64,000 nucleotides of DNA, from the NCBI GenBank assembly GCA_973895155.1, contig OZ316892.1, positions 16,039,040 through 16,103,039 on the forward strand. Direction: 5' to 3'. Below are positions 8,863-56,835 of the stretch, piece by piece; the first letter of the stretch is position 1; every line of letters starts with the position of its first letter. Source of the DNA: Marsupella aquatica (lineage: Eukaryota; Plantae; Marchantiophyta). Under the pieces are notes generated by a model, which saw nothing but the letters and a program-made list of their open reading frames with translations, had not been told where the DNA came from and ran no database searches. Position numbers and translations under genes: made by a program.

Positions 8863-9019
8863 TCCTACTGGACCACAAAAACATGTCATCTATGATCACC
8901 CCGTATAACACAATGCAACCACAATCACCAGGCATCCATCCATACATCTGTGTTGCTTCAGAATTACTTTATTACACATCCTTCCCCTCACTAATGTCCA
9001 TGCAAACAATTCACATTAC

Positions 9020-14748: not shown

Positions 14749-15429
14749 TCACAGCCAAGATATGTGATCTCTCACAGGAGTGCGCGAGGTAGGATCAATG
14801 GCATGGCGATGACAATAAAATATCCATCGATCAACACCATGTGCAGAGTGATCATAGATTTCTCTATCACAAGCATAACCCTCTGCTTGACGATCTTTCA
14901 GGCAATGATAGTGCCACATGGTGGGACACCTAGCACAGTGGACTATGTCAGTCCAGTACTCATGATCATGCTCACCACATGCCTTGCACCTATGAAGTGG
15001 GCAAGCTGTGGCATGAGCAGGCAAACACTCAAAATAGAAAAATCTCACACAAAAATGGTCTGGACATTTCCTAACATTTGTTGCAGCATCAACAGAGCCC
15101 TCATAGGACCCCAACTTCCCACATTGTGCACACTTAGCCTGCTTCTCCAAACAATCAGTGCACATCCAGTCTCCCTGGTGTGTTGACGGGAGGCCCACCC
15201 TTGGACAGTTGTTTTCTGCAGCAAGGTCAGACTCCGGGTTGAGGTGGAAATGCCTCATGCAAGGGCCCTCACAAATGACCAGGCCCCCACCATCATCACA
15301 AATGGCACAACAATGAGCTGCCTTCTGGAAAATCTGACTTGCAGAGAAGTTAGTAGCATCTGCCCCAAGTACACCTGTGTTTCTCACCTCTGTCACACGC
15401 TTTTTGGCTTGAATTTTAGGTCGTGCCAT
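14749..15429 (-). CDS. Stand-alone EDM2/NSD-type composite PHD finger protein, CACTA cargo
   Basis: CAICDDGGGLVICEGPCMRHFH...WMCTDCLEKQAKCAQCGKLGS...CPLHRCKAC...CARCPTMWHYHCL...FYCHRHAID...TPVRDH follows the EDM2 PHD region as recalled, including the terminal TPVRDH motif. Intronless, 226 aa. Confidence 0.85.
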   Translation of the reverse strand: MARPKIQAKKRVTEVRNTGVLGADATNFSASQIFQKAAHCCAICDDGGGLVICEGPCMRHFHLNPESDLAAENNCPRVGLPSTHQGDWMCTDCLEKQAKCAQCGKLGSYEGSVDAATNVRKCPDHFCVRFFYFECLPAHATACPLHRCKACGEHDHEYWTDIVHCARCPTMWHYHCLKDRQAEGYACDREIYDHSAHGVDRWIFYCHRHAIDPTSRTPVRDHISWL

Positions 15430-15440
15430 GCCTGCGCATG

Positions 15441-15584
15441 AGATAGACTCTACAGTTTAGCAGACTGCACAGAAAGTAATATATATTTAGCATTTAAGGT
15501 ACAAAGGCATTTAGATAGACTCTACAATTTAGCAGACTGCACAGAAAGTAAAATATATTTAGCATTTAAGGTACAAAGGCATTT
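15441..15584. repeat. Tandem duplication, 2 x 72 bp, just upstream of the PHD ORF start
   Basis: AGATAGACTCTACA(G/A)TTTAGCAGACTGCACAGAAAGTAA...GGTACAAAGGCATTT occurs twice. Confidence 0.9.
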
Positions 15585-18001: not shown

Positions 18002-19715
18002 GTAGTGCGGGTGCAGGTTCCCAATTTTGAAACAATTTGGCTCATTTTATGTCCCGAGGGACTCCAGGAGTTTATGTATTGAGTTTCTAGGTCAGGATGC
18101 TTAATATAAGGAAATTCAATTTTCACTTCGTTCCCAGCTTCTACTAATTGAATATACACGAGATGGAAGCAAGAAGATAAGCCACAATCTAGCATCTTAG
18201 CCAAACACATTCGTCCCGACAAAGCAAAACTACAATCACACAGTGCGAGTTGTGTCTGCACCGGCACCCCCAGTGAGACTGATCAGCATTTGGACTGCAT
18301 CATTGTCTAGAGCTAGCAGTGGAAGGTGCAGTGGAGATAGCATGGGGACAGGGAAGGAAATGCAGGTTCCTTAAGCATAAATTTCCAAAAATGGAACAAC
18401 AGGAAATGAAGAATAGGCACTGAAGTGGTCAACTAGACAAACGTTGTAACAAGGCAGCAAGCATTGGATTAAGAAGAAGCAAGGTTTCATCAGCAGAAGC
18501 AAGGTTTCATCAACAATGGCATTGTGAGACAAACCACTCCTTACAAATTTCTACAGACATCCTCCCCACTTGCAGCTTCTCGGCCAGGCTGGATTTCTTG
18601 TAAGAGAGGTTTCTTGTAAGAAAGATTTCATGTTTGGTGAGGAAAGATAAAAAAGCAACTGATCAATGCCTTCTTGTCATCTAGAAGAGCTGGATGCAGC
18701 CCTGTCTCACATTTAATGTTAAACTGAATGAAAGACATTATGCGCATGCACAAAAGAAAGACATGAATATAATTAAGGTAGGTTTTAAGGAGCGGAGTCA
18801 GCAGTCAGACTTAGAAAGTTCAAATTGAAGCGCCATTAGTTTGGCGTGGTCAAGAGTAAATAAATGTTGGTCAGGGATACTCACCTCTTTTGAATGTATT
18901 ACTGACTCAGCTAAGCCCAGCTAGACAGAAGTCACTCAGACCCACAAAAAAGTGAAGATCCACCTCCAAGCCGGAGCTCTATCACTTCAGTAGAGCAGCT
19001 TCTGGACGGAACCAACTCTAATCAGCCCCACAGAACACAAATGTTAAGGTTCCAAGTCAGAGCTCACTTCAGCCGAGGTGGACATCGCAGCTAGACCATT
19101 CAGTATAGGCAGTATGGAGCCTGAGACTACGCTCATTGTTCAGAATTGAGGTGATGAAAGTGAGTTGGCATCAGTGGATACAATGAGAGGGGAAAAAATT
19201 CTGACCAAATCGCACCTCTATAATCAGAGAGGTTCTATTTCCAGGGAACTCATTCATTGACCAGAGTAATATGGCCCACATTTAATTAGACTATGATAGA
19301 CTCTTCCTCTGCAGACTCAAACTCGAGGAACCCCCACGGATGCCAGCATATACACGAGCTAGAAGCAAGAAGACAAGTCGCAATCTAGCATCTTGGCCAA
19401 ACACATTCTTCCTGGCGATAGTAACTGCAAGCAAGGGGGAGACAGGGAGAACAAGGAGAATAGGGAGGCAACTCACAATGGAGCTAGGTAGCTCATGATC
19501 AAGCAACTTGCAATTGCAGCAACAGTAGTCTTAGTAGCAAGCGATTGAGCTCCAGGAAATGACAAAGCCGCAGCTGAGTCCTCAACTGACAAAATGTTCG
19601 CCACTCGACCCTCCTTCCAACTGCAACCGCCAGATAGTAGGAATAAGATAGAGAGGTTGCAGCCTTCTCAGTGATCCAATAGCACCTCTCTTACCACCTC
19701 CGCTCTTAGCACATC

Positions 19716-19912
19716 CGCTCGCACCCTCCGCTCGCACCTCCGCTCTCAGCACCTCCTTTGGCACCTGAGCCGCTCTCAGCACCTCCGCTCGCACCTCCGC
19801 TTGCACCACCTCCTTTGGCACCTGAGCCGCTCTCAGCACCTCCGCTCGCACCTCCGCTCGCACCACCTCCTTTGGCACCTGAGCCGCTCTCAGCACCTCT
19901 GCTCGCACCGCC
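19716..19912. repeat. GC-rich ~60-bp tandem repeat (about 3 copies) in the CACTA 5' region
   Basis: Unit GCACCTCCGCTCGCACCTCCGCTCGCACCACCTCCTTTGGCACCTGAGCCGCTCTCA. Confidence 0.9.
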
Positions 19913-22684
19913 GCCCAAACTGAAGCTACGTAGCAATCCTCAGCAGTGTGTGACAGAAGCACTCCACTCCAGCTCCACTCCGCTCGAGCTCCACTCCAGC
20001 TGCTCTCCGCTCGTAGCTCCTCGGCCAGACCGGCGGCCAGAGCAGCTCCCAAATTGCAGCTCCTGCCCGCCCACAGCTCCTCCCAGTCCTAGAGCTCGTC
20101 GTCCACTGCAGCTCACCTCTCCACTCCGCAAGCCGGTCGCCCTCTCAGCTTGAATGCTCTAGAGCTTTGAAGGTAAACCTTCAAGCTCCAAGCGCAAAAC
20201 TCCCCTACGCGAAGGAACTGCCCCGATCGCGAAGCACACTCCCCACTTTGTGAGACCACGCACAATGTGACGACCTTCAGGCACGACGAATGTCCCCGTA
20301 ATGGACAAGTGAGTTTTTCTGAAACAAAACCCTCCGAGTTCCCACGCACATTGAACTGAACTTTGCACTTTGCTGGCGTGTTTAAACCCTAAACAAAACC
20401 CGCGCACCCTAAACTCGTGTCCAAAGGCACACTCACGCACAAAGCATACCTTAACACTTAGTGACACTTAGTGAACTAAACCCAATGAGCCTCGACCACT
20501 TTGCGTTGACATGAGCCGTTGATACACATGTTAGTACCCTAAAGCAAATTGGACACGACACTTTGTGAGCAAAGATTAAATGAACGCAACTGTAACCTCT
20601 TAGAACGCAACTGTAAATTAACCCTTACACATGCCACTTAGGGAGGGTGGACAAAGAATGGGGGCCAGACACTACTTTAGCCCTGAATTGAAAATGATAT
20701 CACCCCAATATTCTTGTCAAAGTTGCCCATGAACTCTAAGGAATCCATTGAGCAGCATAAGACTTACTATTATAGAGGCAAGTACTCCCATGCACGTTTA
20801 ATTAGGCTAGCTAGGATAACTAGCTACAATGCTCTTGACATGAAGACATTTAACTAGTTTTGCAACCCTAAACCCCCATTCCTTCTATGTGCACCTAGTG
20901 CTCCCGACTCCGCAAGTTGCAAGTCAAGGGTTGTAAATGGAACATTCCGTGATGTCTAGAGTGCATGTAATCCTTCTTGCACTCTATTTCAGAATGCCGT
21001 AATGGAGAGTAGCTTATTCAACTTACATATGACTGCCCTACTAGTGTTACAATTGCTACTTTATCAGAAGTTGTAGGAATGACTTTCACAAATATCCCCC
21101 AAAAATCAGTTGATAAAATGTAACAACAATGACTCCCCTAAACTTGGAGTCATGTATTTTTGAAAGTCTCCCTAAAGTCACAAAGCATAGGGTCTCAAAA
21201 GGGGACGTTTTCTTCTAGTGGCTCCACCTCAGTAGCACGTTGCTGATCGATGACAATCCCCGAGGGAGATGCTCTTCTGGCGAGCAAGCTCATCAACCCT
21301 TGACTCTATTTCTCTATGGTCTCCAATGTCATCTTGAAATCTCTCCATTGGGGGTCCGGTATTCCGCCCCTCCAATTTGTTCATCTTAAGATGATCCCGT
21401 GTCCTTTGAGAATCCCATCTCGAGAATCCGTCCCTCTCAACACCTGAAGGTTTAAGTCCATACCAACTTTGCGCATTACCTGTACCTTCAGTCGTGCCTT
21501 CTCTTTGCAAATGGGAATGTCCAAAGTTGGATTTAGCTCTGACATCTTGACTTGGTGCACCATGCACTAAAGCAGCTCCCTAGCCAAGTGTATCAGCAAC
21601 ATGTCCCTACAAGCGCAAACCACCTCCGGGTCGATCACTGGAATAAGACCAGTGGTTTGCTCCACCCTCCGCATCCGTCCGTTCATTACCTGAATACGCA
21701 TGCCCCGGGCCCATGCCACGGCCCTCCATGCGGCCGGAGTTCCGATAGCGTGACATTCGTTTGCTCACCCTCCCAAGTTGAAGCCAAGCCTAGTAACCCA
21801 ACCCAAAAGCAAGCAAAATGGCTGTCTCGCTTGGCAGTCCCACAATTTTGCTTTACCCAAGACTTATTCAAGCGCATAAGAGATAAAAAAGGTGAGAGCT
21901 CACCCAATCCAGAGCACTTCCAGGTTGATCGCTCCATGCACCCCAAATTCTCCTCCGTAAGAAGTTGTTTTCTCTCCTTCTAATCACCGCTTACACCACG
22001 GGCTATAATCAAGTTCTTCTCCTAATGCACTTTCTACTCCAGATTTAACTTCCTTATGAAAACCAAGAATCCCGTGCAAAGTTTACCAAGGAAACAAGGG
22101 TCGTTCTTCTTCCTCGTCCCTCTTTCCCTGCGTTCCCAACCCTAACATGTTCCAGGTTTTCTTCCTTCTCCGAGCCACACTGAATTTGCTTTCACTTCTT
22201 ACCACAATAGTAACACTCCCTCAATGAGGAGTAATTATCTTAGCATCCTATAACCTTTAATCTATCCTACCTCCTCCCGCCCTCCAAATCCAAGTACAGC
22301 CAGCACACACTTTCAGCTCCGCCAATTCATTGTATCAGCTTAGCAGTCAAATTGTCACAAAACTTAATTCCTCCATATTTAACCTTCCATTGATAATCCA
22401 AACTAAGAGATTATCTTAACCAGATTGATTTCCTCTATCTTTTGAGCGTTCTCTTTTGTACGAGCACACACCAAGACCAATGGCAAAACCATCGGTTACC
22501 GCCTTGCTGAAAATTGATTTCACTTCATCCCACACACATTCCTTGGATGAACATGGGGGTCCACGGAGTAATTGAAGCTACAAAAAAACATTAAAGGTGA
22601 CTAAGTTCAAAATGACATTCAAAGATAGGAAGCCTACTTTGGATATTCATATATGTTGTGATGCTCTATGAAAACTAGGGATAC

Positions 22685-23292
22685 TAGGCTCATTGGAAAG
22701 CACATTTAAAGGTGCCCCCCTTATGATACCAGGATTGGCAATTGTCACCCAATGGAGGGATCAAAGATCACCGAGTGCAAAAAACCCTATAAGCAACTAA
22801 CTTTGCAAGTTTTATTTGCATTGTTGCATGCAAGGGAAAATTGGTGATGTTGGACTCAATGAAAAGCACATCTCATGGCACTTCCAATGCTACCAAAATA
22901 GACAATTGTATTTCAGTAGTAAAGGAGAAGTCAAAAGTCAAACGTCATAAATTACAAAAAGTCTACAAACATTCAACAAAAGGCAACTGAGTTTGATGCT
23001 CAACAGAAATTGGCAATGTTGAGCTTGTTGGGAAGCACATCTCAAGGCGCTTCAAATAGTACCAGGATTGACAATTATCCAACCTTAATCAGGGAGAGGT
23101 CAAAGGTTGATCCTGCTGATGGTAGAAAATAACATTCAAAAGAAGGTATCCAGGGAAAGCAATGGTTGATCCAAATTGTGGAAAATCTACAAGTTTTCAA
23201 GAAAAGACAAATGATTGTGTGTGCAATGATGCTCAACAAAATTTGAAGATCTTGGGCTCATTGGAAAGCACATCGCAAGACTCTTCTAATGG
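22685..23292. repeat. Degenerate ~170-bp tandem repeat with (CATTG)GAAAGCACAT core
   Basis: Cores near 22691, 22860, 23030 and 23259. The first three are followed by an ACCAGGATTG(G/A)CAATT-like sequence. Confidence 0.6.
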
Positions 23293-24030
23293 GAGTGTTC
23301 ATAAAATGAGAGATAACGGGTATGATAGCCACGACAGAAAACAGAAAACAGAAAACCTGTTACCAGGGGTTTATTTTCTGTTAACAGGGAAATTGTACCT
23401 GTTACCAATAAGCTTGTCCCTGTTACCAGTTTTGCCTGAACCATAACGTGCATATCCACCACTCTAAGGTGCATATCCACCACTCTAATGGCATAATTTT
23501 TCGGGGGGCAATAAAGTTTAAAACAAACAATTATTTTGTGCCATCCGATGGATGAAGTGTACTATCAATCCTCCATTGACACAACAATTTATTGTAGAAG
23601 ATAAAAAACATGGTATTAGGAGTGTGCCTAAAGAAACATTCATGCAAATCAATCTATTTTCATCGGCAAATAGTGACCCTTAGAGTGGGACCCACCATAG
23701 CACATGTCAATCGTGGAGTCCAAATGAACCCAATCTAAAGGAGTTGATTAAATGGACCTTGTAACGTCACAAACAAATGACAAATCACATCCTCGAGGCT
23801 TTGAAGACAGTAGACAATTTAATCAACTTACACATTTTAAATAAAACAAGAGGTCATTCTTCCACAATGCACGTACATAATGAAGCAATGAATATCCGGT
23901 TTCCTAGAACCAGCGCCTGGCGCTAACCAACAAAGTCTCAATAAAACAACTAAAATATCTGTTGGAAAAAGACAAAATAGGGAATAACCGTTATATTGAA
24001 CGACGACCTATTGGGCAGTTTCGATCTCTC

Positions 24031-27000
24031 TCATAAGCCATTCAAGTTCTGCCTCTCCAGCACAAGCCTGACTTCGCCTAAAGTCAAAATAGATTGGCTG
24101 CAAAGAGTCGACTCCTCAATCTCAAGTTTGAAAACATTTATGTACACCCAGTATAGATGTTTGCAAGGCATGTACGACTTGCCACGCGAATGTCGGAGGA
24201 AGAAGTCTTCACAAGAGCAAGCGGGGAAGATACAGATTTGGACGAAGTATGTGCTTGGTGATCGATGGTTCTCATGGGTTCGAATTCGAAATTGCTTTCC
24301 AAAAGCATTTCCGGTCTGAACATTCCATTCCCCATCCAAACTCATCACTTCTTGTCGTGCAGACTCCATTCGCTTCGTGTGACCCACAGTGAGATTAGAC
24401 TGAGGCCTTGAGTTCCTCCCATTTCGACTACCAAGTCGGAGATTCGGCTCCAAAAACCTTATTGTTTCTGGGAACATGTTAACATTTATCCTGAGGTCAA
24501 AAGCAGATGGCGCAGATTGACTCAATCCTGTTGTTCACGCTAATACAAGTCCTTGCTCTTCCAGGAATGTAATTTCAGAAGGAGACAGGCTTGTACCCTT
24601 CAGAACAGGCAAAATGTCAGGAAAAGGAGGAAGCTTCTGAACACCACGACGCGGATGACTCTTGTAACACGCTTGGTTCGGGAAAAACCAAATCATTTCG
24701 GAGATGGGTTCGCCCCTGAAGAGACGATGGCCCTTCATGACAATTCTGACAACACCTTCAGACGAATGGAAGCCAACCTTCTTGATACGATTTCGACACT
24801 CATCGCGATCCAAACTCCCATTCAGTGTACCATTGCATTGCGGACCTGCTCCATACTTCGATGTCCGTCGCAACTGCCACTGCCCCGGAGGGACATCCTT
24901 CTCTAGCACAATCGTGCGTGGAAGTTGATTCTGAAGTGTTGCTGGGGCACTGAGCGGAGGTTTTGAGGATCTTGTTGTTCGGGTTGTTTGAGGAGTATAG
25001 TCCAGTGAATCAGTATCACTCTCTGATGTGACCATACCTGAGAGATTCACCACCTTTGTGACAGGATGATCAGAACTTGAGGGAATAGAAGAAAAGTCAA
25101 TTCTGTTCAGGTTCTTCCTTTTCAAACCACGAGTATTTGGTGTGGTTATTAGAACGGTGTCATGCCGATGGGAATCTTGTGGAGAGACAGTCCCAGTTGC
25201 ATGTCCCTTCCTCTTCATTGACTTTGTCATTATATCTCCATTCAGGGGAGTACTTCTTTCCAAATCGAATTCTGCTGCGTTAGATAGAAGCATATTAGTC
25301 GCTTCTTCAAACAATCTTGGCAAACCTGCTTGATCGGCGGAACGGAACGCCAATTCCCATATAGTTGGCCCCTTCCCCCGGTTCAAGCCTTTACGGTATG
25401 CACTGTATCCGGCAACTTGAGACAGAGCACGGTTTTGGTCAACTTCGCAAGCTTCATAAAGACCGACCTTTTTCTTTGTAGCCGAGGCTTTCATGGACGC
25501 ATGCCTTGATTTTGACCCTGTACAGTTGGGGATCAAGGCACCTTCCTCAGCGCTTTTGCTCTGCCATACGAAAATGTCAACCATAAGTAGTATTATATTA
25601 CCAGCGCCCGGCACTGGCAACATAAATATGTAGAACAGGCCTGAAATACAATTTCAATGTTTAATACTGAATTCTAACTACATATTGGCTTCAATTTCTT
25701 GTACTACTTGTTTTGACGTGTATGGAGAAAATAACCAGCGCCTGGCGCTAATATGAAGTTGATGAACATTACAGTCTAGATAGATGGATGCCTTACCACT
25801 CGAATAAAATTGCCCCATTGGCGCCAGCGAACAACCCACCAAGATATCCAGCTTTGCAGCATCTTCAGCTTTCCGGGGACACAGTTTCCTGATTGCCACC
25901 ACACAACAATCTCTCGGGACACCCGGTATGCTGCCACAAATGATGGAGCATTTCTCAATTTCTCCCAAAGTCTCCGATGCTCCGATTGACATTCTTCCAG
26001 TACTCCTTCCTTGGAATGACGATGAAAAGATTGATAAAAGTGAAATGCATCAGAGCGCTCCCTCTCCGGGTCCGGGTGTCCACCAAAAAAAACATTTCGC
26101 ACTGCATTCCATCCAGCTTGTGCATTGTTGGCCATAAATCCTTGGATGACAACCTCCTGAAGTTCATTTTCTTTGCAAACCTCAATCATCACTCTCCATG
26201 CCTTTTCGAAGGACTCAGTGTCTTCACCTTTCAACTCGCATGTGAAAATTGTACACAGTGCACGGAAATTGTGGTTGTAGACGTGTGCGCTGAAAGTAAA
26301 CCAATCCGTGGTGACACGCTGCATCACATCAAAACTTACCCAGGCTTCTTCGAGTCTTCCACCCGGTTGCATCTGCCTCAAAAGATCCACACCGGAACCG
26401 TGACCTTTCACGGTCATTTTAAAGATGTGAGGCCTATCGTTCTGACATCCCTGACCTGGAAGCAAATACCTCTGGAGAAACAACACATGAATCCTCCTCT
26501 GCATTTGCGAGAGAAAATCTAATTCACCCCGACCTTTTTGGTCTATCCTAACGCTCCGACAAAGAGATGCAAACTTCTGCGGAGTGGAAAGGATCATCAG
26601 AGACTTCCATATTTCAGTTTCTTCGATATCGACCATGTCGTCAACATGTTCGCAGAGAGATTTCACTAAGGACCCTGTAGCAGAATTCAAGATCCCTGCC
26701 GGTTTTGACAGAGGATTGGCTTCATGTTTTTTTTTAATTAGATCCTCAGCTATCTTCTCCGCACTCCTACAGAAGGTTTTTCTACCTGGATGGTTGTGCT
26801 CACCTATATGAATTGCCAGGCGGGATATATGACTGCATGTTTCCGCATCAAGTAATACTTGGGGGTACATGTAAAACAAACGGGCAGGGCAGTACTTCAC
26901 ACAAAAAGGAATCTGTTCGCAGTAATGACAAACAACACCTCCCTCTTCGATGAAAGATCCCACAGCATACTGACCACTGAGCTTTGGAGTACCCTGCCAT

Positions 27001-27781
27001 GCCTTAGCATTTGCCTTCTTCTTCCTTTGGAAATAGTCGCAGGACTTGTTCCTGCATTCAATGAATCCTGTACAAGTAACCTTCCCAAACTGCCAAAGGT
27101 TTTTAGGATGAACAGTTGCAGTTGTTGGAAATATGCGTGTCCAAATGTAACAATCTTTGGCACGATCCATGTCCCTAAGCCTAGAGCCTTTAGAGAGCAT
27201 CTTATCAATGGGCGGCAACTCAACACGACGTTACCATTGTACTTAGTTGGCAGACAGGACACTTGTTCATGCCTGAAATGACCCACTGATATGAACCGTG
27301 ACAACTCACTATGACCAGTTGATTTGAGTAACGTATCCATCGCACTGCGCCGGTACACGACCTCCAACTGCTTAGAGCTTCCTGGAGTCTCAGCTTTCAC
27401 GACAACAGGGAGTGGGCTTTTCTTCTTCGACGGTGGACTTAGAGTACGATCTCCATCCTCACTTGAAGAAATCTCAACCACATCACATGGAACCGGCGGG
27501 AAACTGGACAGTCCTGCATGCTATCTTAAACAAACCGAGTACGAGATCCCTACGTAGAGATGCCAAAACCGTTCACCATCATCGACATTGAACGTTGCAG
27601 CATCCTCGATATCATCAATGGATTCGAGCTCTCGAACAATGGCCTCAATGTCATTCATCTTCAAATCAAATCTCCCGCAGAGATACCTCTCCCGGACCTA
27701 CTTGTACGTATCTTCCATGGGGACGGGGATAGTCACAATATCTTCAGAACCGAATCGAGAAAGAACGATAGACCGAGACAT
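24031..27781 (-). pseudogene. MULE transposase: GCM/WRKY-like Zn domain + MULE DDE + SWIM finger
   Basis: Zn domain CTGFIECRNKSC...CHYC...CPAR...HIGEHNHP. Catalytic core WVSFDVM, GFMANNAQA, DAFHF and GSKSRHA. SWIM finger CSC...MPCKH. One frameshift near 27220, an intron at about 25563-25796, in-frame TGA at 24535-24537 and a TAG in the predicted first exon. Confidence 0.85.
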
Positions 27782-28743
27782 GGTGAACAAAAACAAAAAC
27801 CGAGGGCTATAGCGTTTGAAAGAAGAAAAGTTCATGGTATTGTTCAGCTTATATCTGTCGAACCTGGGAATTTGACGTTAACCGATCCGTTTGTATACGA
27901 CATAAAACATTGACGATGGAGGATCCGTTGGCACCATAAATGATTTTTGTCGTTTTTTCCTCGAGAAGTCCGGATGTCAGACACGAACATATTGCTAAAA
28001 AGATCACCAACCTTACTTAAACAGACCATAAGATATGACAAGGTATTGTCAAATTTTAGTAGCGCCTGGCGCTAACTAAAATACGCCACCAAAAATGTGT
28101 CTGAAATCTCGACATTCCAAACTAGCGCCCGACGCTAGTATAGAATAAATTCCCTTAAAATGAACATTATGACCACATACCAGGTGGTAATTGGGAATAA
28201 ATGGTGCCTTCAAAGGATGGTTTTGATTGATTATGGATGATAAATGAACATTTATACTAGCGCCGGGCGCTAGTATTACATTTGAGAAATATTTCTCCGT
28301 AAATGATGTACTGAAGGATACTTTAATAAAATATGGGGGTGGAAAGGCCGAAATTTATGTCAGCTCCTTCAAAAAAGACCTCTAAATTTCTTCCAGTTTA
28401 TACTAGCGCCGGGCGCTATTATAAGCATACTCTAAATTGTTCACCTTGATGGTCATCATTAATGCTAGCGCCCGGCGCTAGTATTGATATGATGTTAGGA
28501 AATGTCTTTAACGGTAACATTCAACGGTAACTTATGACTTCCGTGTGTGTTACGCATCTTCTACCGTTTGATTTTGGTAATTAAACCTTCCGTATACAGA
28601 CGTTGGAAACCGCCAAACATCAGAGCTAATGGCTTTCCTCTAGGTTATGTCATCCTCCCGCTAGAATATATTACACGTTCAGAGATGATTATAGTTCCAT
28701 AATTTCATTGTACGATAGTTCGTACGCTTCTAGAAGGAAGACG

Positions 28744-31700
28744 ATGGAGGTATTCCCCTCTTCTTCTAGAGGGTATAGTGTGGTTCCTGACCAGGAGCGA
28801 GCTTATTCTGAATCTTCGCAGTCTTCGTTTACTGGTTCAGTCTATACACGTCATGTAACTCGTTCCTCAAAGTTGTTGCCGCTCACTTCTGTCAGCGGTG
28901 TTTTGGGTCCAAATCCTTTGCGAAGAAAGATGGACAACGTAGACATAATTGCGATCCAGGATGTTGCGGATTGCGCGCTTGCTGAGACTGATCTCATTTC
29001 GAAGCATGTCATGTCTTTTGGAAAGGATTCTCGTGGATTTGACAAGGAGCCGCCTCGAATCCCTCTGTGTCGATTGGTTCACATGGAGGTGGTTCGTACT
29101 CTGCAGAAAGACAGCTCTTCCATCGAGAAGCTGAAAGACTCTTTTCGTAGTATGGGTTACAACTCTTCGATAGGGATGCGTTTCTATGTGCAGCCAACGG
29201 ATGAGAACGGAATTGTTCTGACCTGTACCCAGGACATTCGTGATTCATGGGATCCAATATGGCAATTGGAGAACAAGAAGTTTGAGGCTGAATGCGAGGC
29301 TGACCCGGATTTTCTCGTCTTGAAGGATAAGATGTTCTCTGTATTTGATGGAAATCACAGGCTGTACTCCTGGACGCTTGTAACAGAGGAGAACCCGGAC
29401 AATCCAAAATATCATCCTCGTGTGCTCTGTACAATATTTAAAGGAGACAAGGGATCTCTCATTGAAATTGAGGCAGCTATGCACACCATGAATCAGTAAG
29501 TTCTCATGATTTCCAGTTCTTTCTTTAAATCTTGCGAGTGCTGTATTTACTAGCGCTCGGCGCTGCTTATACATGAATTGTTTTTCATGGACTCTTACTC
29601 TCAACGTTTGTTCGTGTAGGCTTGGCCAAGCAGTTGTAGAGCCTTCCTGGATCCTGGATGCAGACAGAATCAAACGAATTCTGGCGCATGACCTTGAGTA
29701 TTACAGTAAACTGATTGACCCGGGTAATTTCAAGAAGTTTGAAAGCATTCGGCTGAAAACTCGGAAGGGGTCATGGTATACGAAGAAGATGCCACAAGAA
29801 GCACTTGTTTACATTCTTTGTGAGAATAAGATAAAGTCGTACTCGCATCAATTCAAACTCGACATGGAGGCAGCGGAGGCTCAAGGGAGTCCATGGTCGG
29901 CGGACGAGATTTCAAAACGGCATGCGGCCATGATGAAAGACGCAACCAAAGATTGGGCAGTGAAGTCTTCAAAAATTACGCCCTTATTAAGTCCTGAATT
30001 TGAAGATTTCCTCAGTACATGTGCAGAAATGTATGCTGTCACAGAGAGAAACAAGAGAGAGAAGAAGCCTGACACCGTTGTATGTACGATGGACCGCGCA
30101 CGATTGTTCACCGCTGTTTCTGCTCTAGACCCAAAGTTACGAAGCACTTTACTTGTGGCACATTGCAATCCTGAGCTGCGGAGACAGTTTTTTCACCCAG
30201 CAAGTGTTAACGATGATCCAGTCAAACAGTGGTGCCACACTTGGATCACTTGGAATAGTGTGGAGGGAATTGCTGCTGGCATGTTACATTCATGTCTACG
30301 TGAAGTTGAGCAAACCATGCCCGCGAATAGATTGGAAGAGTGGAATTGTAGTTCATTTGATGATCTAGTTTAGTTTGTTACAAATGAATTCAAGAGATTT
30401 GGTGATTCCGTGAAGAATAAGTTCTTTCACACTATGTGGCCTTCAAAGTACCCTGACAAAGAAGATTACACCCAGAGAAACCAGAAGCGAGCGAAGAGGT
30501 TTGTGTATAGGTTCTACATGCACATGGAGGTAACCAAACCTGATTACTTCTGGGCATATCCTGCAGCTTTTATGAAGTGGATTTCAATAAGTGAAGATGA
30601 TGCCTTGGCTGATTTGTACTCTATGTACCCCACGGAGGGCATATTTCCTCCGAGACCAATGACAGAATGGGAGAGAACTCACTGCCCCTAGTATCTAGAT
30701 ACAGATAGATGGGATTCTCCTTTTGATCAAAGGGAAAAAGATGCCTTCCATAAGCTTTCAAAGTCTCAGATACCAGCAAAACTTGTGTCCGACATGAAGC
30801 AGGGTCTACTTGACGATGTAGACAAGTCTGCCACAAACTTGCAAACTATCTGTGAAACAACTATTGTGCATGTGGACCGGAGTCGCAAACCTCGTGCGAA
30901 AGCCAAAGCGGAGCTAGCAGCACCGAGCGAGTCTACTAAATCTGGAAAGAAGAGTAAGTATTGCTATCCATGATTTTGCCAGCGCCATGCGCTGGCAAAA
31001 GAATTCCGTTGAGGGTATTCTCTTTCTTGGTTATTAGGCTTCGGTTGCGACTTAAGTGAATTGCATTTGGTTAGCGCCAGGCGCTAGCTTCTTTCAATAC
31101 TTTAAAAGTACTTATTCTAACTACGACCTGGTTATATTTTAGGAGGGAGGAAGTCTAATACGGTGGGAACGAGAGATACTAAAAAGGATGCTACACCTGA
31201 AGTTTCCGAGGCAAACACGGGAGCTCGATCGGACCCCATTACTCCAGTCGACAAAGGGAAGGTTATAGTTCCTATCGACGCCACGAGTACCAGGAAGAAA
31301 TGAAAGAGAGCTGTCGAAGGTGGACAATCTTTAAGGGAGAGTGTTATAGCTTCTGGTTTCCAACGTGAAGTTGGAAACTTCAAAACAACTGTGTCTCGCC
31401 ATTGCATGGTTGAGACAAGCCTTTCTGAATTTTTTGACTCGACGTTCAACAAGGAGGAGAAGCCCGAGTGGGTTAGTGATGTGGAGAAATGGGGAAAAGA
31501 CCTCGTTAAATTGGGATTTAAAGAGAAGGGAGTTGTTCGGGGGGGAAAAGTAAGATCGTTTGGAGTGGATGCCGGCTTCATTTACCTACCGACCGGGTTC
31601 AAACCATCTATCATTGATAAGAAGGTTCCTAAATGGAACATTCCAGATCACTCAATGGCGAGATCTTTTTTCAAATCCATGGATCCATTTTTATCAGATG

Positions 31701-32419
31701 ATGGGTTCCTTGTAATTCTACACAATGGGGAGTACGATCCCATGTCGCAAGTCATTGCTGCCTGTCAGGAGTCAAGGAAATTTTAGTGTATATGCTCGCA
31801 TAATGTTGTGATGTCTGACCCGATGTATGCGGCAAAGACAGACCGAGAGATGTTTACCCTCAGGCTCGACATATTTGGCCGAATTAATGGGAAATGTAAA
31901 ATTTCCAAAGACCCCAAATTTCGGCCGCTGTCCATCAGTGAGGACCCTTCGGTTACCAATTTGATCGGACTCTCTTCGCTCAAATCAGATCCATTCCCGC
32001 AAATGGAGTTTGCTGGAAATGCTCGTCTGTCTGTGGGTTTTATGCAATCTGTTATAGAGCTTGTCACACGGCCTCGTGATATTTTTATGGATTGGACTGC
32101 TGGGGCTGGAGGCTCTTACATTGCTGGCGACTTCTCTGGACGATTTGTACTCGGGATAGAACACCGGAAAGAATTTATTGAAACCGCTTCAAAGGTTTTC
32201 ATGGATTTGTTGTCTCCCAAAGAGATTGCAGTGTTACCTCCACCTGTTCCTACTGCCGACAGAAAAAAGAGAGATAAGCTTCGGTCGGTTCTCAATTTTG
32301 ATTCTGATGATGAATCGAGTGAAGGTGAAGAGGAACAAGGTACAAGAAACTTTGAGGAGGAAAAGGGAGAGCATCGTGCAGCTGCAGATGAAACCGATAG
32401 TGATGACTCTTCCGAGTAA
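28744..32419 (+). pseudogene. Three-exon gene for a ParB/Srx-like domain + beta-class N4C/N6A DNA methyltransferase-fold fusion (~1120 codons, 4 nonsense codons)
   Basis: Exons 28744-29495, 29620-30953 and 31143-32419 join in frame through GT-AG introns (3363 nt). ParB-like motif FSVFDGNHRLYSW. MTase motifs VDAGFIYLPTG, FLSDDGFLVILH and VIELVTRPRDIFMDWTAGAGGSYIAGDFSGRFVLGIEHRKEF. Stops at 30371, 30689, 31301 and 31784. Confidence 0.8.
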
Positions 32420-33429
32420 TGTTCATAAACTCGTAAGCTTCTTTCTCCATTCCCGTCAATTCATAACATTTCTTTTGTTGTTTTGGGGAAAGGTGCCTTA
32501 CAAAATGGACTTTGTTATATCAAGTCAGAGTGGAATGCAAGGAGACGATTCAAACTGCGGAGGAAGATCGCAAGACACAACGTAGAAACACCGGAAAAAC
32601 CGTTTGTTCTTCCCTCCTATGCAGAGAAAGCCGCAAGGAAAGCAGAAAGTGCAAGGACACTTTGCTGGGAAAACAAAGGTCTTCGGTTACGAAGGGGTGT
32701 TGACCGAAAGTTCATTAAACATCCTTATGTTGATGACTTCTCCCGCAGCCAGTACGTAGATGATGAGGTTGTGTCCACGGACAGATCCCAGAGTACAGAT
32801 TCTGGTTCCGAGTCAGAATCTTCGGAACCTTGAGAAGTAGTGGGTAGTTGAGGCTAAATCTTTTAGCAGCGCCCGGTGCTTGTAACAAGTGTATTATTTC
32901 CCTCTGCTGAGGGTCCTTTGAAATTGTTGATTTCTCTCTACTTGTTGATTACTTTTGACTTCTGTTCTTTACAAGCGCCTGGCGCTCGCCAAATGGAATC
33001 TCTAAATGGCCGTTTAGTCAGTCGTCGGATTGTGTTCTTTAGTCAGTCGTCGGAAAACCGTTGGGGACCATAGTTTAGGGACCGGGCGGAAGGGACGACT
33101 ATAGTTTCCATTTAGGTTTGTTCGGGACGACGAGAGTTGGGGACGTCGATAGTTGAGGACGACGATAGTTTTGGGAAGACGATAGAACGGGACGTTAGAG
33201 CAGGGCGAGAGAACGGGTCGATACCGGTTACCAAGGCGAAGATAGTTTTGGGAGGCAATAGAACGGGACGATGATAGTTTGATGGTCGTTTCGGAATGGT
33301 AGTGTACGCGGACCTTTATCTGGCGTCTTAGTCTTCGCGGACCTTTCTTTGACCTTTGTCGGCTATAGCACTCGCGGATGACGTTCTTACGGGAGGAGAG
33401 GTTACATATTAGATCGGGATCTTTGGAAC

Positions 33430-33891
33430 ATGGCGAGTCAGTATGAGCCAATGGATTGGGAGGCAGCTTTTCGTCCTTCTCGTGTGCGTCCAGAAGAGAG
33501 CCATTTCAGCTCTTTTGAATCGCGGATGGAGACTGAAGAAACTGAAACTTCCACTTTTCAGAACCGTCATGCTCTCCCGTATGATGAGGCTATTAGTCCT
33601 GGAGAGAAGAACATCCCTTGGATTGTCGATTCCCCTACGCCTCCGTTCTCTAGTCGGTTTTCGTCTCACTCGGGAGTTCTTGTTGATGGGGTACTCCCAA
33701 TCGATCGAAGAGTACAAGAAATGTTCGGGCGAGTTGATTTTAAGGACAGTAATATTCCTAATGAACATTTTACGAGGGCTGTTCATCGAGGACCTTCAGA
33801 GGGATACGTTCGTTTGCGTGGTCTCGGCTTCAAGAAAGATCGGCGGAGAGAAGCAGCAGGAGTGGATGATGATTGCAACTCAGAAAGCTAG
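33430..33891 (+). CDS. Hypothetical 153-aa MULE accessory ORF
   Basis: ATG-initiated, open, protein-like composition, and lies between palindrome copies. No recognisable domain. Confidence 0.35.
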   Translation: MASQYEPMDWEAAFRPSRVRPEESHFSSFESRMETEETETSTFQNRHALPYDEAISPGEKNIPWIVDSPTPPFSSRFSSHSGVLVDGVLPIDRRVQEMFGRVDFKDSNIPNEHFTRAVHRGPSEGYVRLRGLGFKKDRRREAAGVDDDCNSES

Positions 33892-34668
33892 ATGGAAATT
33901 TCGTTTTGCTGATCGCTTTAAGCTAGCGCCGGGCACTGCTAAAGTTTTCCGGATTTTGTGGCATTGAAGTCGACCTCAGCTCTGGTGTTAGGGTTTTCCC
34001 GGTTGTCTACTATTTAGGTTTTGGCTAGCGCCGGGCGCTATTGAAACGACAACGGATTTTGTGGGAGGGAATGGATCTTGACTATGTTGTCTGGGTTTGG
34101 ACGCATCTTGTCTCCAAGAAACGACTAGTTTTCTAGTTAGTTTTTGGCTAGCGCCGAGCGCTGTTCATGTATTAGTCGAAAACCTCCGACGGTGTCGACC
34201 GTGACTTCATGGATGGGATTTTTAGGCCAGATTGTTGATGTTGATAACTGCATTTTGTATCACTTAAGCCGAGCGCGTTTTCTATTTTGCCATAATATAT
34301 GCGAATGTTTTTTCCGGCCTTTCTTTTCTACTTGTATTTGTCTTGGATTTTGTGTATCTCAATTGGCAGCCGTCTTTTATGTTTCAAAAAATTGTTCCCG
34401 TGTTGTTCTTTTATTTATCACGAGGGTTTGGTGGTTTTGTTTTCTATTCTTGTACTTTCAAATGGAGATTTTGAGACCTTTTTTTAAGATCACTGTTCAC
34501 GACCATCCAAACACTGTTCACTGGTAACAGCTCCTTTTAACTGGTACCAGAATCTGTTTCTTGTTACTATTATCTGTTTGCTGTCGTTTGTAAATTCCCC
34601 CAGCATACCTAAGGAGATTAACAAGCGAACGAGAAAGTACGTCAATAACAAGCTCAAAATCATCAGAT

Positions 34669-35160
34669 TTGGAGGAGTCGCAATTGCCTCAACAAATGAA
34701 TAGTCCACCACGACCATCGGGGTCTGGTTTGGCAGGTCCTGCCCCGAGCCCGGTTGCACCTCCGCCAGTGCCCCCATCGGCTGTAGCTCATGCGGCCCCA
34801 GCTCCTCCGCAAGTATCACAACGATCAAGGTTCCATTACCGACCATTCAAAGGACGTCACGGGGACAATCCGGATGAATGGTTGGATGAATTTGAGGCCA
34901 CCACCAAAGCTAATGGGGAAGATGCCATTAAAATGATAGTTCTTCCAGGAGTAATGCGGGGAGAAGCCCACCCATGGTACAACTTGCTACAACCCGGAAT
35001 CACCTGGCCACAATTCCAGGCAGCATTGTTCCAAGAGTTTTGTGTGGTCGGAGCAGAGTCGCACTCCATGTTAAAAATTGGCCATCTTTGCATGGGGAAG
35101 AAGGAGGTCCTGCAAAAGTTCATTCAGAAGTTCTAGAAGCTCGCGGCCAAGATTTTTGCA
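34669..35160 (+). mobile_element. Ty3/gypsy gag (capsid) fragment
   Basis: PFKGRHGDNPDEWLDEFE...MRGEAHPWYN...TWPQFQAALFQEF...LQKFIQKF* matches retrotransposon gag. Confidence 0.8.
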
Positions 35161-35735
35161 CGGGTTTCCCATGGATATGCAATTTTGGGTTGCCCACGGA
35201 TATGCAATTCTGGGTCATGAATCCGCTCATATACGAACACTCTTCCTGGTGGGTTTCTGCTAGCGCTTGGCGCTACTAATATCTGTTCTTAGAACTTACG
35301 TTAAACTAACGGAAATATTTTGTTGTCAACGGTCATCCGCCACCATTTATCTCATATTTATCCATTGTATCAACGGTAAATTAATTCTATTTTGGAGGTC
35401 CACGTCATGTTTTCTTTGTTCAAGATGACTTACTTGCAGAGAAATAAGAATGTCAAACTTGAAACAATCTTGTCATTTCCTATTCTGTCACGTTGTTTGG
35501 GGTAATTAGGGTAAAATGTGTGGTTTTGGGTGACATGATTAGCGTTCTTGTGACTAATAGAGAAGGTCATCAATGCGTTAGTGAAGATTATCTTTGCAGA
35601 AGGTTTGATGTCAGGAGGAAAGACATTAAAATTTTAGCGACACCTGACGAAGGGTAAGCTCATTTTTATTACATTCTGGGAACTGCACGTAGGTGTCCAG
35701 TACATGCTTTCCCTCAAAGGAAAAGGGGTGGTCAG

Positions 35736-36615
35736 GTGAAGTTAGAGACGGGAGATGCACCAAGGGAATTCATTGACCTGACGTCTAATGGCGAGGACTT
35801 ATTCCCTGGATCTCAATCGTCGATCAATGTTAGGAAGATCACGAGCGAAGAATGTCATTTCCAGTATATCAGTGTAGCAAATCAACAGAGGACGTTCTTC
35901 TTGCGTCAAACAATGGATGTGACAAGCTTCTAAAACCTCCTTCTCTTCCTGTCGTTTACAGAAGAAGCGCATTAGACGCCCTTTTGAAATCACCTGGTCA
36001 AAGTGAGCTATCTTGCTTTGTGCGATCAGAGACTTTCAAGCACAAGCAAGTAGAATTACTTCCAAGAACTTACAACGACAATGTTATATTTGAGCTTCCA
36101 CCTGTCGATTGTGTTGGTTCAAAGGGGAAGCGTCTCCTTAACATGGACCGGTCAAGGGATTGCTATCTGTGGACTTGAATTCTTCCTACTTCAACCAATG
36201 TCTTGCTGAAGAAGATGTGGGAGTTTGGCAAAGTCAGTTGTAGCAGATCACTTGAATGTCGAAACAAAGCTTGCAAGTTTTATATCAAAACCAATGGTAG
36301 GAATTGTACGTCATGGGAAGGGACCCCCAAGTTAGGAGGCCAACATTGTCCAGGAAAGTTGATTGATGCAAGAGGGATTGTTTGTCATTATGGTCTTCAA
36401 CTCCCGTTATGTTTGGACTCCTGTTCCGCAAAAATGTTCTACATGTACCCATAAGTCCTGCTGGATTTGGTGACAATGCAGCATATATCACTCCTTGCCA
36501 TCCATATGGGTGTCCATAACCATCCTTGTCAAAAGGTCTGGTCTAGAAGTTTAGAGATAATAGCTGTCGAAGAGATTTGAAAAGAGCACTTCAAGAATCC
36601 TTCTTCCTCACCCTT
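35736..36615 (+). pseudogene. Second, decayed and truncated copy of the GCM-like MULE transposase N-terminus
   Basis: VVYRRSALDALLKSPGQSELS, NDNVIFELPPVD, MDRSRDCYLWT, WEFGKVSC, ECRNKAC and MFYMYP...LAIHMGVHNHP align with 26780-27360 (-). Several stops. Confidence 0.85.
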
Positions 36616-38430
36616 TGTTTGTTGTAAGAAGGACATCACGCCCTCTATCTTGATTGGGTCTACTTGATACAAAAGTTGCACTCCTGGGAGTCCGAACATT
36701 TTGCACAGCTTCGGGTTGGAGAAAGTATGAGTTTTCCCCTTGTATGTAATGAACAAAGCATCAAGTGACATTGTCACCTTAGTAATTTGTGAGCAAATTT
36801 CACCTGCCCAAGCGGTTGATAGATAGCAATCTATTTGCACCATGCCATCAACTCTAGCCCTATCAAGAATTATTCAACTCTCCTCGATGCGCTGCACCTC
36901 CATGATGGAGTTGCGGATCTTCTTGTTTGAAGATGGAGCTCCCTTCTTGTTCCTAGCCGGGGGGAACCTCCGCTCTCCGTGTTCTTGTTGCCTCCATTTT
37001 GCCTAATGAATTCTAGTAGTGTAAGTGGGGAGTGAGCAAATTGTTGCGTTGCGTTTCGGCGAGTGCTTTAGTTGGAAGCAAGGGACAATAAGTGCGCAAA
37101 TGCCTCGTGGGGAAAAATCCAGCCCACCTCTCTGCCTTATGCTTGAAGGATTTCTCTCTTTGGTCTTTGAGTGTCCGGAAGGGCGGGATGGCCCTTTGTT
37201 GTGCAAGCGCGAGAGCATCTTAGTCAAGCGCCCACTTAATGATATCCTTAGATACGGTGATTACTCTGGGGGCTACTTACGAGTGTCCTCTACTCATTAC
37301 TAAGTAAAGCCACAATACTTGATATGGTTGTTATGCAGTTTTCCTTAAGTTCAGATCAGTGGCGGTACCTTAAGACCCATTATGGTTGTCCCAACTATTT
37401 TTAGAACAATAATCGTGCTTTACTATAAACGACAAAAAGATTGGGATCTGCACAAGTATATGTGAGGGGAGCGATACCCTTGGGGGCGGGCCAGGGGCAA
37501 ACCCAAGTTTGTGTGAAGCGTGACGTTCGCGCTACTAAGAAAAAATGCCAAATAAAAATGATAATAAATTCTCAACGTTGTTTGGGTGATTGTAATTTGT
37601 GAAAAGAGCATGTTGGCTCGTATAAAGTTAATCATGCATTGCACTAAGTACTAAATCAAGATTAAAATAATAATTATATTCAATAGAGTAGTGAGTATCA
37701 TGAACGGTTTTGGCAATACTAATATGTTATTAAAGTTTTTTTCTTCAAATTTGCATATCAATGTCTCTACAATTGAACTTTGTACGATAAGCTATTTGAA
37801 TATCCTCAAGAGAAAACAAAACAAATAGATCATTTGAGGCTCTATTCCAATCCATGATAATTTTAATAAATAATGAAAATAATACATTTCCATTCCTCTC
37901 GGTATGACACAACTATATAGACTAAGGGTTCATTAGATCCTATAACAATGACGATAAACCCAAAACCAAAGTGATATATTAGGTGTTATTGTATAGAAGG
38001 TTTGTCTAGAAGATGAACTCTAATAAAAAATGGATTACAAAAGGGAAGATTAGGAATGACACTTTTTGCTTTTGTTTTCTATTAGATTCATAATAACTCA
38101 CATGTTTTATCTCTTGGGCTGTTTTATCTCGAGAAATGACTCACATGTTTTTTTGCTATTCAAGCCAAATGATGTCTCATCTTATATTTCCAAAGAAACC
38201 TTCATCCTAAAGGTCCCATCTTTAATTCTATGACTTATTTTTTTGTTAACCGAGCCAAAAGATACCCTATTATATGAACATAAGGCTAAAGAATGAAGGA
38301 AAATATGGAGAAAATATGAGCATTTTGATGAGAGAATAATCAAGATGTGAATGAGGAAAGAGTGTCTTTTGCAATTTATTTATAGTGAATCCAATAGCGC
38401 ATGGATCACGCCCAAATACTTGGATCAAAG

Positions 38431-38774
38431 GGGTATAACCACCGTGACAGCAAATAGCAAACAACAAACAGTAAATAGTTACTCGTAACAGCAAACGGGT
38501 GGTAAAACTTTTGGAATTTTTTGGGGAATTTTTTGGGGAATTGTTTTTGGGGAAAAAATATTAAATTTTTTTTGTGAGTCGATATTTTTTGGCTAGCGCC
38601 CGGAGCTAGTAATAGTATCGCCTTACACTAGCAAAAAATTGTCATGTTTTAAATTATTTTGAAAATTGTGACTTTTAATGACACATTTTTAGATTGTCTA
38701 GTTTGCTCGTAACAGGAAATTTTTGCTCGTAACAGTAAATCTGTTTGCTATTTGCTGTCACGGTGAAAACCCTC
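38431..38774. mobile_element. 344-bp non-autonomous MULE (MITE) related to the 23318-34600 element
   Basis: TIR core CACCGTGACAGCAAATAGCAAACA at both ends. Perfect 9-bp TSD GGATCAAAG at 38422-38430 and 38775-38783. One TAGCGCCCGGAGCTA palindrome at 38594. Confidence 0.92.
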
Positions 38775-40326
38775 GGATCAAAGCCAAGAAATACACGTTA
38801 AATATAAAAATGTGTGCTAGTATCATTGCAAGCAAAACAATTAATGCATACAAGTAAAACAACAAATGCATGCACCAAGTGGTTAGTATGCATATACAAA
38901 AAATAACTAACGCATACAATGCGTGGCTTGGAACCTTTTTGCCTTGCAAGTATGCACAAAATAACTAATACATGCACCGCGCCTTGCATGCAAATAAAAT
39001 TACTAATAGCAAAATTGTTTAGTTATCCTTTAACAAAATATTAATCCAATCTCATATTACATAGTAATAATGATTCTATCTTGATAATCAAATTATCACA
39101 ACACTGTTAGAAGAATTCTTGGATGTGTTGGAAAGCTCTTGAATAAGACATGTATCCTCCTGAACTCAGTTGGGTGCTCGGTTGGGTGTGCAGGTGCCTT
39201 TGGTTCTTGAGGTTTGTCGGGGCTAACTTGTGTGCTCGCCAAATCCAACACTCAAACCGCGTTCAGTTTCACACTGAGCTTGCATTGGGGAAGCAATGTA
39301 GAGTAGGCATGGGTGTTGAGATCCAAGTGCAAATGGCCCCTAGACTCTCACATGAGTGGGAGCCTCGGAGATATTTGCTAGAGTCGAGGCCAAACTGGTC
39401 TCGACATTTGAGAAAGCTTCGGAACAAGCAAGCTACTTGGGCCTTGAGCATATCCTGAAGGCATGGTGGTCAACCAGTGATGGATAGAAAGTGGGGAAGC
39501 TCGGCAATACCTAGTAGATGGGCTATTCTAGACAAATGGTGGGTGTCAGCCTTGGCTTCAACTTCTGGCAAGGTCACGCGGGCCCGAAAAGTTCTATTTG
39601 CTAACCTTACTAACAATTGTGGAGCTTGAGACAAGACAATGGTCTTGGAGATCCTAGATCATGATGGATTACTTACCGATGTGTTTGGTTGTTTGTGCAA
39701 ATAGTGAGGACCGTTGAGCGATAGTCGTATTAGGGAGCAAGTGTGACTTCGTATGGGAGTTGCCATTGGGGATGATAGGGCACCGAGTAGTTTCATGTAC
39801 TAGGCGTTTGGGCACCAAAGGTACTTAGACAAGAGTCATGTGATTGGTGATGGCGCTATGTGGCAACATCCATCACTCTCCCCAACTTCAATTCTCAGTT
39901 GCTATAGCTTGTCGCCTTCCGGCTAGAGGGATCTCCTATTGTTCCTCTTCTTCTCGGCTCTTCTTCTCTTCTACTTGGAGGAAGCGTTTAACCGCCGTCC
40001 ATGCAAGGTCCTAGTTGATCCTAGCGTCATGTTGTCTTTGCTGATTAAAATTCCATATGTTCTTGAGTTTGTCCTCCAGGATGGGTGAATCCATGAGGCT
40101 CACACAATAATTAGTATGCGTGATACCAATTTTGGGTGATACTACTTACATGCATAGAATACTTAATGTAAAGAGTGTATATGTAGCTCTTTATATACAT
40201 TGCACGGTTCAGTTTCACTAGGAATTGACTTGGACTCCAGTTTTTATGGTCTGTACACTGTTCACCTGGAAAATGAGCAGTAGCCAGGATGGAATGGGGC
40301 CATTTTATATGGGCAGGTGAGACTTA

Positions 40327-56830: not shown

Positions 56831-56835
56831 AGACC

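Follow-up and report, generated by a model that had tools for sequence, protein, structure and literature searches.

What does a gene that joins a ParB-like domain to a DNA methylase fold do inside a plant transposon? The window analysed here, a stretch of 64,000 nucleotides from the liverwort Marsupella aquatica, raises this question with a spliced gene on its forward strand. An initial annotation had described this gene as a fusion of a ParB/Srx-like domain with a beta-class N4C/N6A methyltransferase fold. Its gene model, in which five open reading frame pieces are joined through two GT-AG introns into a frame of 1121 codons with four stops and no frameshift, was reproduced exactly, and the motifs that it had listed (VFDGNHRL, VDAGFIYLPTG and DIFMDWTAGAGG...GRFVLGIE) were all found, in that order. 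The parts of the gene are as follows.

28744 to 29495, forward strand: exon 1, ParB/Srx-like domain with a DGNHR motif, called from the structure model (pLDDT 79), fold searches and the invariant DGNH
29496 to 29619, forward strand: intron 1, GT-AG, with one palindrome at 29551
29620 to 30953, forward strand: exon 2, middle region with no Pfam match, stops at 30371-30373 and 30689-30691, homologue in metagenome locus L003
30954 to 31142, forward strand: predicted intron 2, GT-AG, with palindromes at 30980 and 31072
31143 to 32419, forward strand: exon 3, beta-class amino-methyltransferase fold with a degenerate motif IV (YLPTG), a kept motif I and an acidic tail
32429 to 32833, forward strand: candidate fourth exon, weakly similar to Ceratodon and Riccia homologues at their C-terminal ends (LPSYAE)

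The three exons join to 3363 nt, that is, 1121 codons including the final stop, without a frameshift. The internal stops of the joined frame are codons 502, 608, 749 and 910, the last two being those of exon 3 at 31301-31303 and 31784-31786. Both introns have GTAAGT...TAG borders. The position and phase of intron 1 are identical in all four metagenome relatives that reach that point (L001 to L004; 38-49% identity in the best segment), and in L003 an exon-2 homologue lies downstream of it (E 1e-17). In a diverged copy of the element, intron 1 is swapped for dissimilar sequence of like length (joint 29503-29615). Intron 2 is predicted, its basis being the splice signals and the open frame. Exon 2 showed no significant similarity to the N-termini of the Riccia and Ceratodon methylase-fold homologues (in the best cases, the score was reached by 17 and 18 of 300 shuffles), so that the fusion across intron 2 gains no independent support from these homologues. 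Judging from the sequence, the gene may extend beyond 32419 into the candidate fourth exon, whose similarity to the Ceratodon and Riccia C-termini had E values of 0.011-0.018 in a small local set and for which in-frame joins to the gene are possible.

The gene had been placed inside a plant DNA transposon. Contig depth and end alignment now delimit this transposon as an 11.3-kb multi-copy element, listed here with its other genes and its neighbours.

23318 to 34600, no strand assigned: Mutator-like DNA transposon of about 11.3 kb, a decayed copy of a multi-copy family, defined by contig depth and end alignment
24031 to 27811, reverse strand: Mutator-like DDE transposase gene, head-to-head with the ParB gene, with an intron at 25562-25796, a frameshift near 27221 and a SWIM-like C-terminus
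33382 to 33891, forward strand: 169-codon open reading frame inside the element, a possible third gene with no family match
35200 to 36700, forward strand: remnant of a related second element, with a palindrome at 35261 and a decayed transposase N-terminus (tblastn E 3e-44)
38431 to 38774, no strand assigned: 344-bp miniature element with related terminal repeats and a palindrome at 38594

On the left, a single-copy contig stops at 23347, and we take the element to start at 23318 if the contigs were built from 31-mers; on the right, high-depth contigs reach 34597. GGG starts both ends, and the terminal inverted repeat is imperfect, short and degenerate. No target-site duplication was found at the ends of this copy, whose flanks differ. 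The miniature element is flanked by an exact 9-bp target duplication (38422 and 38775). In run X1, depth was 18-23 in the single-copy flanks and 256-429 in the element interior; the corresponding values in run X2 were 28-33 and 479-604. Depth is not copy number, and these values suggest roughly 15-20 close copies. Rfam had no match over 23000-39500.

The transposase assignment, tentative as to the superfamily, comes from tblastn and from the motifs D, D, H and W, conserved in 13 rows, a pattern that we take to be that of MULE-type transposases. Searches against Pfam and PDB gave no significant match (SWIM, E 3.7). There were 18 homologues, the one with a name being from Calypogeia fissa. The N-terminal region of the transposase is rich in Cys and His.

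Do the four stops mean that the whole family has decayed? Other copies were assessed from contigs of four public runs aligned to the gene. Among the 40 of 48 differences listed, which do not include the stop at 30371, the other three stops were missing from most or all contigs of other copies, with a sense codon in 85-100% of the contig depth in all four runs. We took 36 exonic differences from the read tables and classed them by eye, leaving out five intron rows. Between copies, 15 synonymous and 4 non-synonymous differences segregate; the window copy has 6 synonymous and 8 non-synonymous ones of its own, along with 3 stops. The excess of synonymous over non-synonymous segregating changes indicates that the frame is under purifying selection. 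The family is alive, even though the window copy is dead.

The evidence for the ParB half comes from structure. The model of exon 1 reached a pLDDT of 79 with 9 sequences, against 42-58 for the other four models. In Foldseek searches of the PDB, the best 10 matches were all ParB, Noc, KorB or Srx (best E 0.048, prob 0.99). VIA-align gave Z scores of 6.2 for PadC (rmsd 3.6, 97 residues aligned), 5.9 for Srx and 5.8 for KorB, unrelated rows staying at or below 2.1, and most of the named top matches among viral structure models were ParB-like. The DGNH of the GxxR phosphate-binding motif was invariant in 14 of 14 rows, and the Arg was present in 13. By sequence, the best profile was DGQHR (E 0.06-0.1, not significant); Pfam ParBc did not match exon 1, and PDB sequence searches did not detect ParB. 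Every score is weak, and the call is carried by the agreement between libraries and the invariant DGNH; these consistent hits point to a ParB/Srx-like N-terminus, as initially annotated. Proteins of this fold include DNA clamps (ParB itself) and non-clamps, for example Srx and SerK (available text of PMC12704722). The 440-aa middle region encoded by exon 2 had no family match, and no DNA-recognition domain was identified in it. Pfam matches to TRAPP and NRN1 were dismissed as chance.

The methylase half was modelled with a mean pLDDT of 95. Its best Foldseek match was CcrM (6pbd; E 2e-13, TM 0.62), followed by M1.HpyAVI, PvuII, RsrI and bdelloid N4CMT. Motif IV (at 76) precedes motif I (at 244, of 298), which is the beta-class order. 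The Pfam score for PF01555, 18.4 bits, was below the 26.7-bit cut-off; a 92-row profile recovered the same beta-class enzymes by sequence. The beta-class N4C/N6A fold thus stands. Searching 1.84 billion proteins yielded 91 matches; the alignment leaves out P0078, a conventional N6_N4 methylase that matched along 60 residues.

The initial annotation had implied that the protein functions like the active 4mC enzymes known from Marchantia and from bdelloids, and this was not supported. Their (T)SPPY is replaced by YLPTG, and the catalytic [DNS]PP[YFW] is absent from the family: none of the 47 rows (of 92) that cover motif IV has an aromatic fourth residue. The first position is D or S in 11 of these rows, eight different residues occurring there; it is Y in the window copy, and the usual form of the motif in the family is x-L-P-T-G. 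The rows from Riccia and Ceratodon mostly retain the first Asp. Since the loss is family-wide, it is not a decay of the window copy. Motif I, assessed in 40 rows, has kept its Asp in 39, its glycines in 34 and 36, and the acidic residue after the next strand in 37. With the catalytic motif gone and the SAM-pocket residues kept, the protein is therefore probably a pseudo-methylase, as read from the alignment. Inactive amino-methylase domains are known in METTL14 and in DIRS1 elements (available text of PMC4738411).

Where does the gene come from? The named relatives of the methylase part, 8 of the 10 looked up, are from Calypogeia, Riccia sorocarpa and Ceratodon purpureus, in line with the bryophyte homologues anticipated; on their own they already point to a bryophyte as the likely host. 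No long relatives of this part were found by word-index search. An Atlas search with the Ceratodon homologue gave leads that were all below 0.9, N6_N4_Mtase clusters among them. The fold makes a prokaryotic origin, as first proposed, plausible, but the searches turned up no close relative among prokaryotes or phages. Phage matches were weak (best E 0.003 among the matches listed). For the ParB part, there was no relative in viral contigs, no phage tblastn match to exon 1, and a single weak ParB-like match in prokaryotic genomes (L008), which was driven by the seed motif. No relatives of the transposase were found in viral contigs either, and the 7 metagenome loci (1.2-6.7 kb) held no transposase or methylase match. 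The tree, built with 35 of the 92 rows and no outgroup, for this reason gives neither the donor nor the order of events.

A repeated palindrome, TAGCGCC-N-GGCGCTA, offered a clue to the role of the gene. With at most two mismatches it had 15 matches, against 0.04 expected. With at most three it had 18: 16 in the element and one each in the related remnant and the miniature element. Apart from those in the two introns of the ParB gene, the palindromes of the element lie as follows, without strand.

23911 to 23925: one palindrome 3' of the transposase gene (motif match)
25602 to 25750: two palindromes in the transposase intron, starting at 25602 and 25736
28060 to 28480: five palindromes in the shared promoter region, starting at 28060, 28123, 28258, 28404 and 28466
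32867 to 34163: five palindromes in the right-hand non-coding DNA, starting at 32867, 32973, 33924, 34026 and 34149

None of the 16 falls in an ORF-defined exon, although exons make up 66% of the element, and each of the three defined introns has one or two (five in total). The palindrome is conserved in its arms and free at its central base, as expected of the site of a dimeric protein. In the diverged copy, a half-site survives in an intron 1 that is otherwise unalignable (loose ends at 29618).

Intron 1 of L002 carries an inverted repeat unlike the window palindrome, ATCTCGGC-N7-GCCGAGAT, together with a second, imperfect copy. A variant of this repeat stands in L003 at the same distance from the donor (about 45 nt), and the repeat is the longest block common to the introns of these two loci, which are about 40% identical in ParB. 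The intron of L004 has no such inverted repeat, and the L001 sequence stops 65 nt into the intron. This second palindrome was chosen post hoc in two of the four loci with intron sequence, and a repeat with 8-bp arms appeared in 2.9% of simulations. The pattern, at two loci and with a motif picked post hoc, points to sites that are specific to the subfamily.

The observed/expected ratio of CpG reached 0.84 for the element; it was 0.25-0.35 for the CACTA pieces nearby, and the pogo-like and LTR-like pieces had 0.58-0.59. The high value of the element may come from its age or recent arrival. The C-to-T changes of the window copy itself lay in CG/CHG context in 12 of 18 cases, against 35% expected (p 0.007). 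This enrichment argues that the window copy was probably methylated although it bears the sites.

We propose, at about even odds of being right, that the passenger gene encodes a self-recognition and anti-silencing factor comparable to VANC, probably a non-catalytic DNA binder and not a methylase. Its spliced product would be one protein that binds the symmetric palindrome as a dimer. The ParB-like domain would be a clamp or a nucleotide switch, loading at the palindromes and perhaps spreading along the 11 kb. The methylase fold, whose SAM-pocket residues are kept, would grip or flip bases, and would block host CG/CHG methylation or recruit activators. Protein and site would co-evolve in such a way that each subfamily protects itself alone, and the dead window copy would depend on intact copies.

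This reading is favoured by the restriction of the palindromes to non-coding DNA, as with the sites of VANC21 in Arabidopsis, a protein that binds motifs within VANDAL elements, in their introns and in their intergenic and terminal DNA, and causes hypomethylation to spread (available text of PMC5735166). The different inverted repeat in the same intron of the other ParB subfamily (L002 and L003), the retention of CpG in the element, and the loss of motif IV with motif I kept also speak for it, as do algal precedents for which the same self-binding role has been proposed. It is disfavoured by the C-to-T changes of the window copy, which point to methylation despite the sites, by the weak ParB scores for a fold that is also found in non-clamps, and by exon 2, which, having no family match, gives no DNA-recognition domain. 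In a more specific form, bryophyte Mutator-like elements would run a system in the style of parS/ParB, in which a nucleotide-gated clamp joined to a dead methylase slides from family-specific palindromes in the introns and the promoter and shields the element from cytosine methylation; we hold this form to be tentative and rather doubtful.

We considered the possibility that the protein is a transposition helper, which would bind the palindromes so as to organise, bridge or tether the element while it is being excised and inserted, and would leave methylation unaffected. Palindromes do lie near both ends (23911; 33924-34149) and in the gene-less miniature element (38594), the terminal repeats are short and degenerate, and ParB proteins are DNA clamps (available text of PMC12704722). 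Yet the densest cluster is in the central promoter, all three defined introns hold sites distant from the ends, and CpG is kept throughout the element, which makes this role unlikely in our judgement. Another possibility, in the direction of the initial annotation, is that the protein is an active, if unusual, methyltransferase that puts 4mC or 6mA on the element encoding it; the CCNGG or GCGC within the palindrome might be its target. The full beta-class fold at pLDDT 95, the conserved SAM-pocket residues and the first Asp mostly kept in the Riccia and Ceratodon rows would fit such an enzyme, and the Ectocarpus protein described below is predicted to make 4mC or 6mA (available text of PMC12477816). 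Against this stand the missing aromatic residue in all 47 rows, the eight residues found at the first position, and the loss of bdelloid N4CMT activity when SPPY is changed to APPA (available text of PMC8885841). We therefore regard activity as quite improbable.

The palindromes might also be sites for the transposase or for a host factor, the passenger doing something else or being two separate genes. The Cys/His-rich N-terminal region of the transposase could bind DNA, intron 2 is predicted and gains no support from the homologues compared, and the annotated bryophyte homologues that were examined lack a ParB part. However, a different ParB subfamily comes with a different palindrome, the frame continues across intron 2, and the product is close in size and layout to the 1104-aa fusion of Ectocarpus. 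We give this explanation little credence.

How far is such a system already known? The sources cited here were available in part, and the comparisons are limited to that text. In the brown alga Ectocarpus, Sola1-1_Ec32 carries a ParB-plus-methylase gene of 1104 aa opposite its transposase, and its authors suggest that such accessory proteins form a new, self-modifying class (PMC12477816). The likeness to the window element lies in the size, with a ParB plus N4C/N6A methylase gene of about 1100 aa, and in the layout. In contrast to the likely bryophyte, Mutator-like host, the Ectocarpus host is a Sola-1 element with a 4-bp duplication and 282-bp terminal repeats, and the available text of PMC12477816 reports neither loss of the motif nor internal sites. 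In red-algal Plavaka elements, PAG2 combines PF01555 with SET and PAG3 combines ParB with a 2OG oxygenase; both also occur in Chondrus Mutators (bioRxiv 10.1101/2025.02.11.637652). Here too, ParB and N6_N4 methylase domains are transposon cargo, and inverted repeats are proposed as ParB sites. The domains of Plavaka are, however, in separate genes with other partners, and its repeats form tandem arrays beside PAG3, whereas in the window element the domains are fused and single sites are dispersed through the introns and the promoter.

VANC/VANDAL elements share with the window element an element-encoded factor, a short non-coding motif and a motif that varies by family (PMC5735166), this last likeness resting on two loci on the bryophyte side. 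The VANC motifs differ in being 8-9 nt long, non-palindromic and spread by tandem repeats, and demethylation has been shown for VANC (PMC5735166); the window protein has ParB and methylase folds, and anti-silencing is proposed for it by analogy. Phage ParB-N6_N4 fusions are common (PMC12704722) and have the same two folds in the same order (PMC12704722; PMC4738411). The window gene differs from them by its 440-aa middle region, its introns and its degenerate motif IV. MpDN4MT1a/b and bdelloid N4CMT resemble it as prokaryotic-type beta-class folds in eukaryotes (8s9m matched with E 1e-9). Unlike the window gene, which travels as transposon cargo and lacks the motif, these are host enzymes that are active and retain (T)SPPY (10.1101/2021.02.12.428880; PMC8885841). 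A text search of the bdelloid N4CMT paper (PMC8885841) found no ParB in the available text, and that of a DAM-retrotransposon preprint (10.64898/2026.05.21.726589) mentions neither ParB nor Mutator. A link to Starship DUF3723 was considered and dropped, ParB being unmentioned in the papers listed. Our literature search, whose coverage left out most subscription journals, found no report of a ParB-plus-methylase transposon gene in a land plant.

ParB-plus-methylase accessory genes in algal transposons are thus already known, as far as the available texts go, and a self-modifying role has been proposed there; the available texts define no binding site for them. The window element adds a likely land-plant, Mutator-like host, a catalytic motif lost throughout the family, and a candidate site that is defined, dispersed and possibly specific to the subfamily. 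The expected mechanism also moves from the addition of a methyl mark to non-catalytic shielding. The element offers a precise candidate site, and a second subfamily with a different site is a built-in control of specificity; together with the relatives in Ceratodon and Riccia, these make the open question of ParB-methylase cargo directly testable. If ParB spreading takes place, it would account for the protection of many kilobases by a small number of short sites, and could give a site-directed anti-silencing tool for plants. If the parS/ParB-style form of the proposal is true, these bryophyte elements would hold a second, independently built anti-silencing system of the VANC type, and with it a sliding ParB clamp operating in a eukaryote.

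The reading frame of the ParB-methylase gene, the passenger of the multi-copy Mutator-like element, may not end with its last assigned exon, and the element itself may hold a further gene:

32429-32833, + strand, ORF with an LPSYAE...YVDDE pattern
33382-33891, + strand, 169-codon ORF inside the element, CpG at expectation

The LPSYAE...YVDDE pattern recurs at the C-termini of Riccia and Ceratodon homologues, and the first ORF is probably a fourth exon of the gene; if so, the protein would be longer than 1120 aa. For the 169-codon ORF no family match was found, and it is possibly a third gene of the element. Many of the homologues of the methylase part (P0004-P0094) break at query position 170-171, which suggests that they carry an intron there that is absent from the copy in the window.

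A ParB-like domain with DGNHR is also found in a 486-aa protein of a gammaproteobacterial MAG locus (L008, 7362-14297). This protein adjoins ORFs whose motifs suggest a C5 methylase as well as a Vsr nuclease, and the locus looks like a defence cluster.

The surroundings of the element in the window comprise:

34-1422, - strand, DDE_1 (pogo-type) transposase ORF (E 3.5e-12)
5157-15456, - strand, CACTA/EnSpm element region with Transposase_21 (E 5e-70), DUF4218 and Transposase_24
13284-14201, twin-BRCT ORF beside the CACTA/EnSpm element
14749-15456, NSD-like PHD-finger ORF beside the same element
19681-19914 and 56466-56833, tandemly repeated DNA, periods roughly 15 and 35 nt
34594-35136, + strand, proline-rich ORF abutting the element's right end
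35200-36700, + strand, what is left of another Mutator-like element, decayed, related to the first and carrying its palindrome
59355-62929, - strand, row of long coiled-coil-rich ORFs

The proline-rich ORF, presumably gag-like, had no Pfam match and is also repetitive in the public read sets; the coiled-coil-rich ORFs look like an LTR-retrotransposon region. The twin-BRCT and PHD-finger ORFs are possibly chromatin-reader cargo of a plant CACTA element. In the neighbouring transposons (34-15456), CG and CCG are strongly depleted (CCG 0.11-0.28) and CWG is not (1.3-1.5). This depletion of CG and CCG with CWG kept is a footprint of the host's way of methylating.
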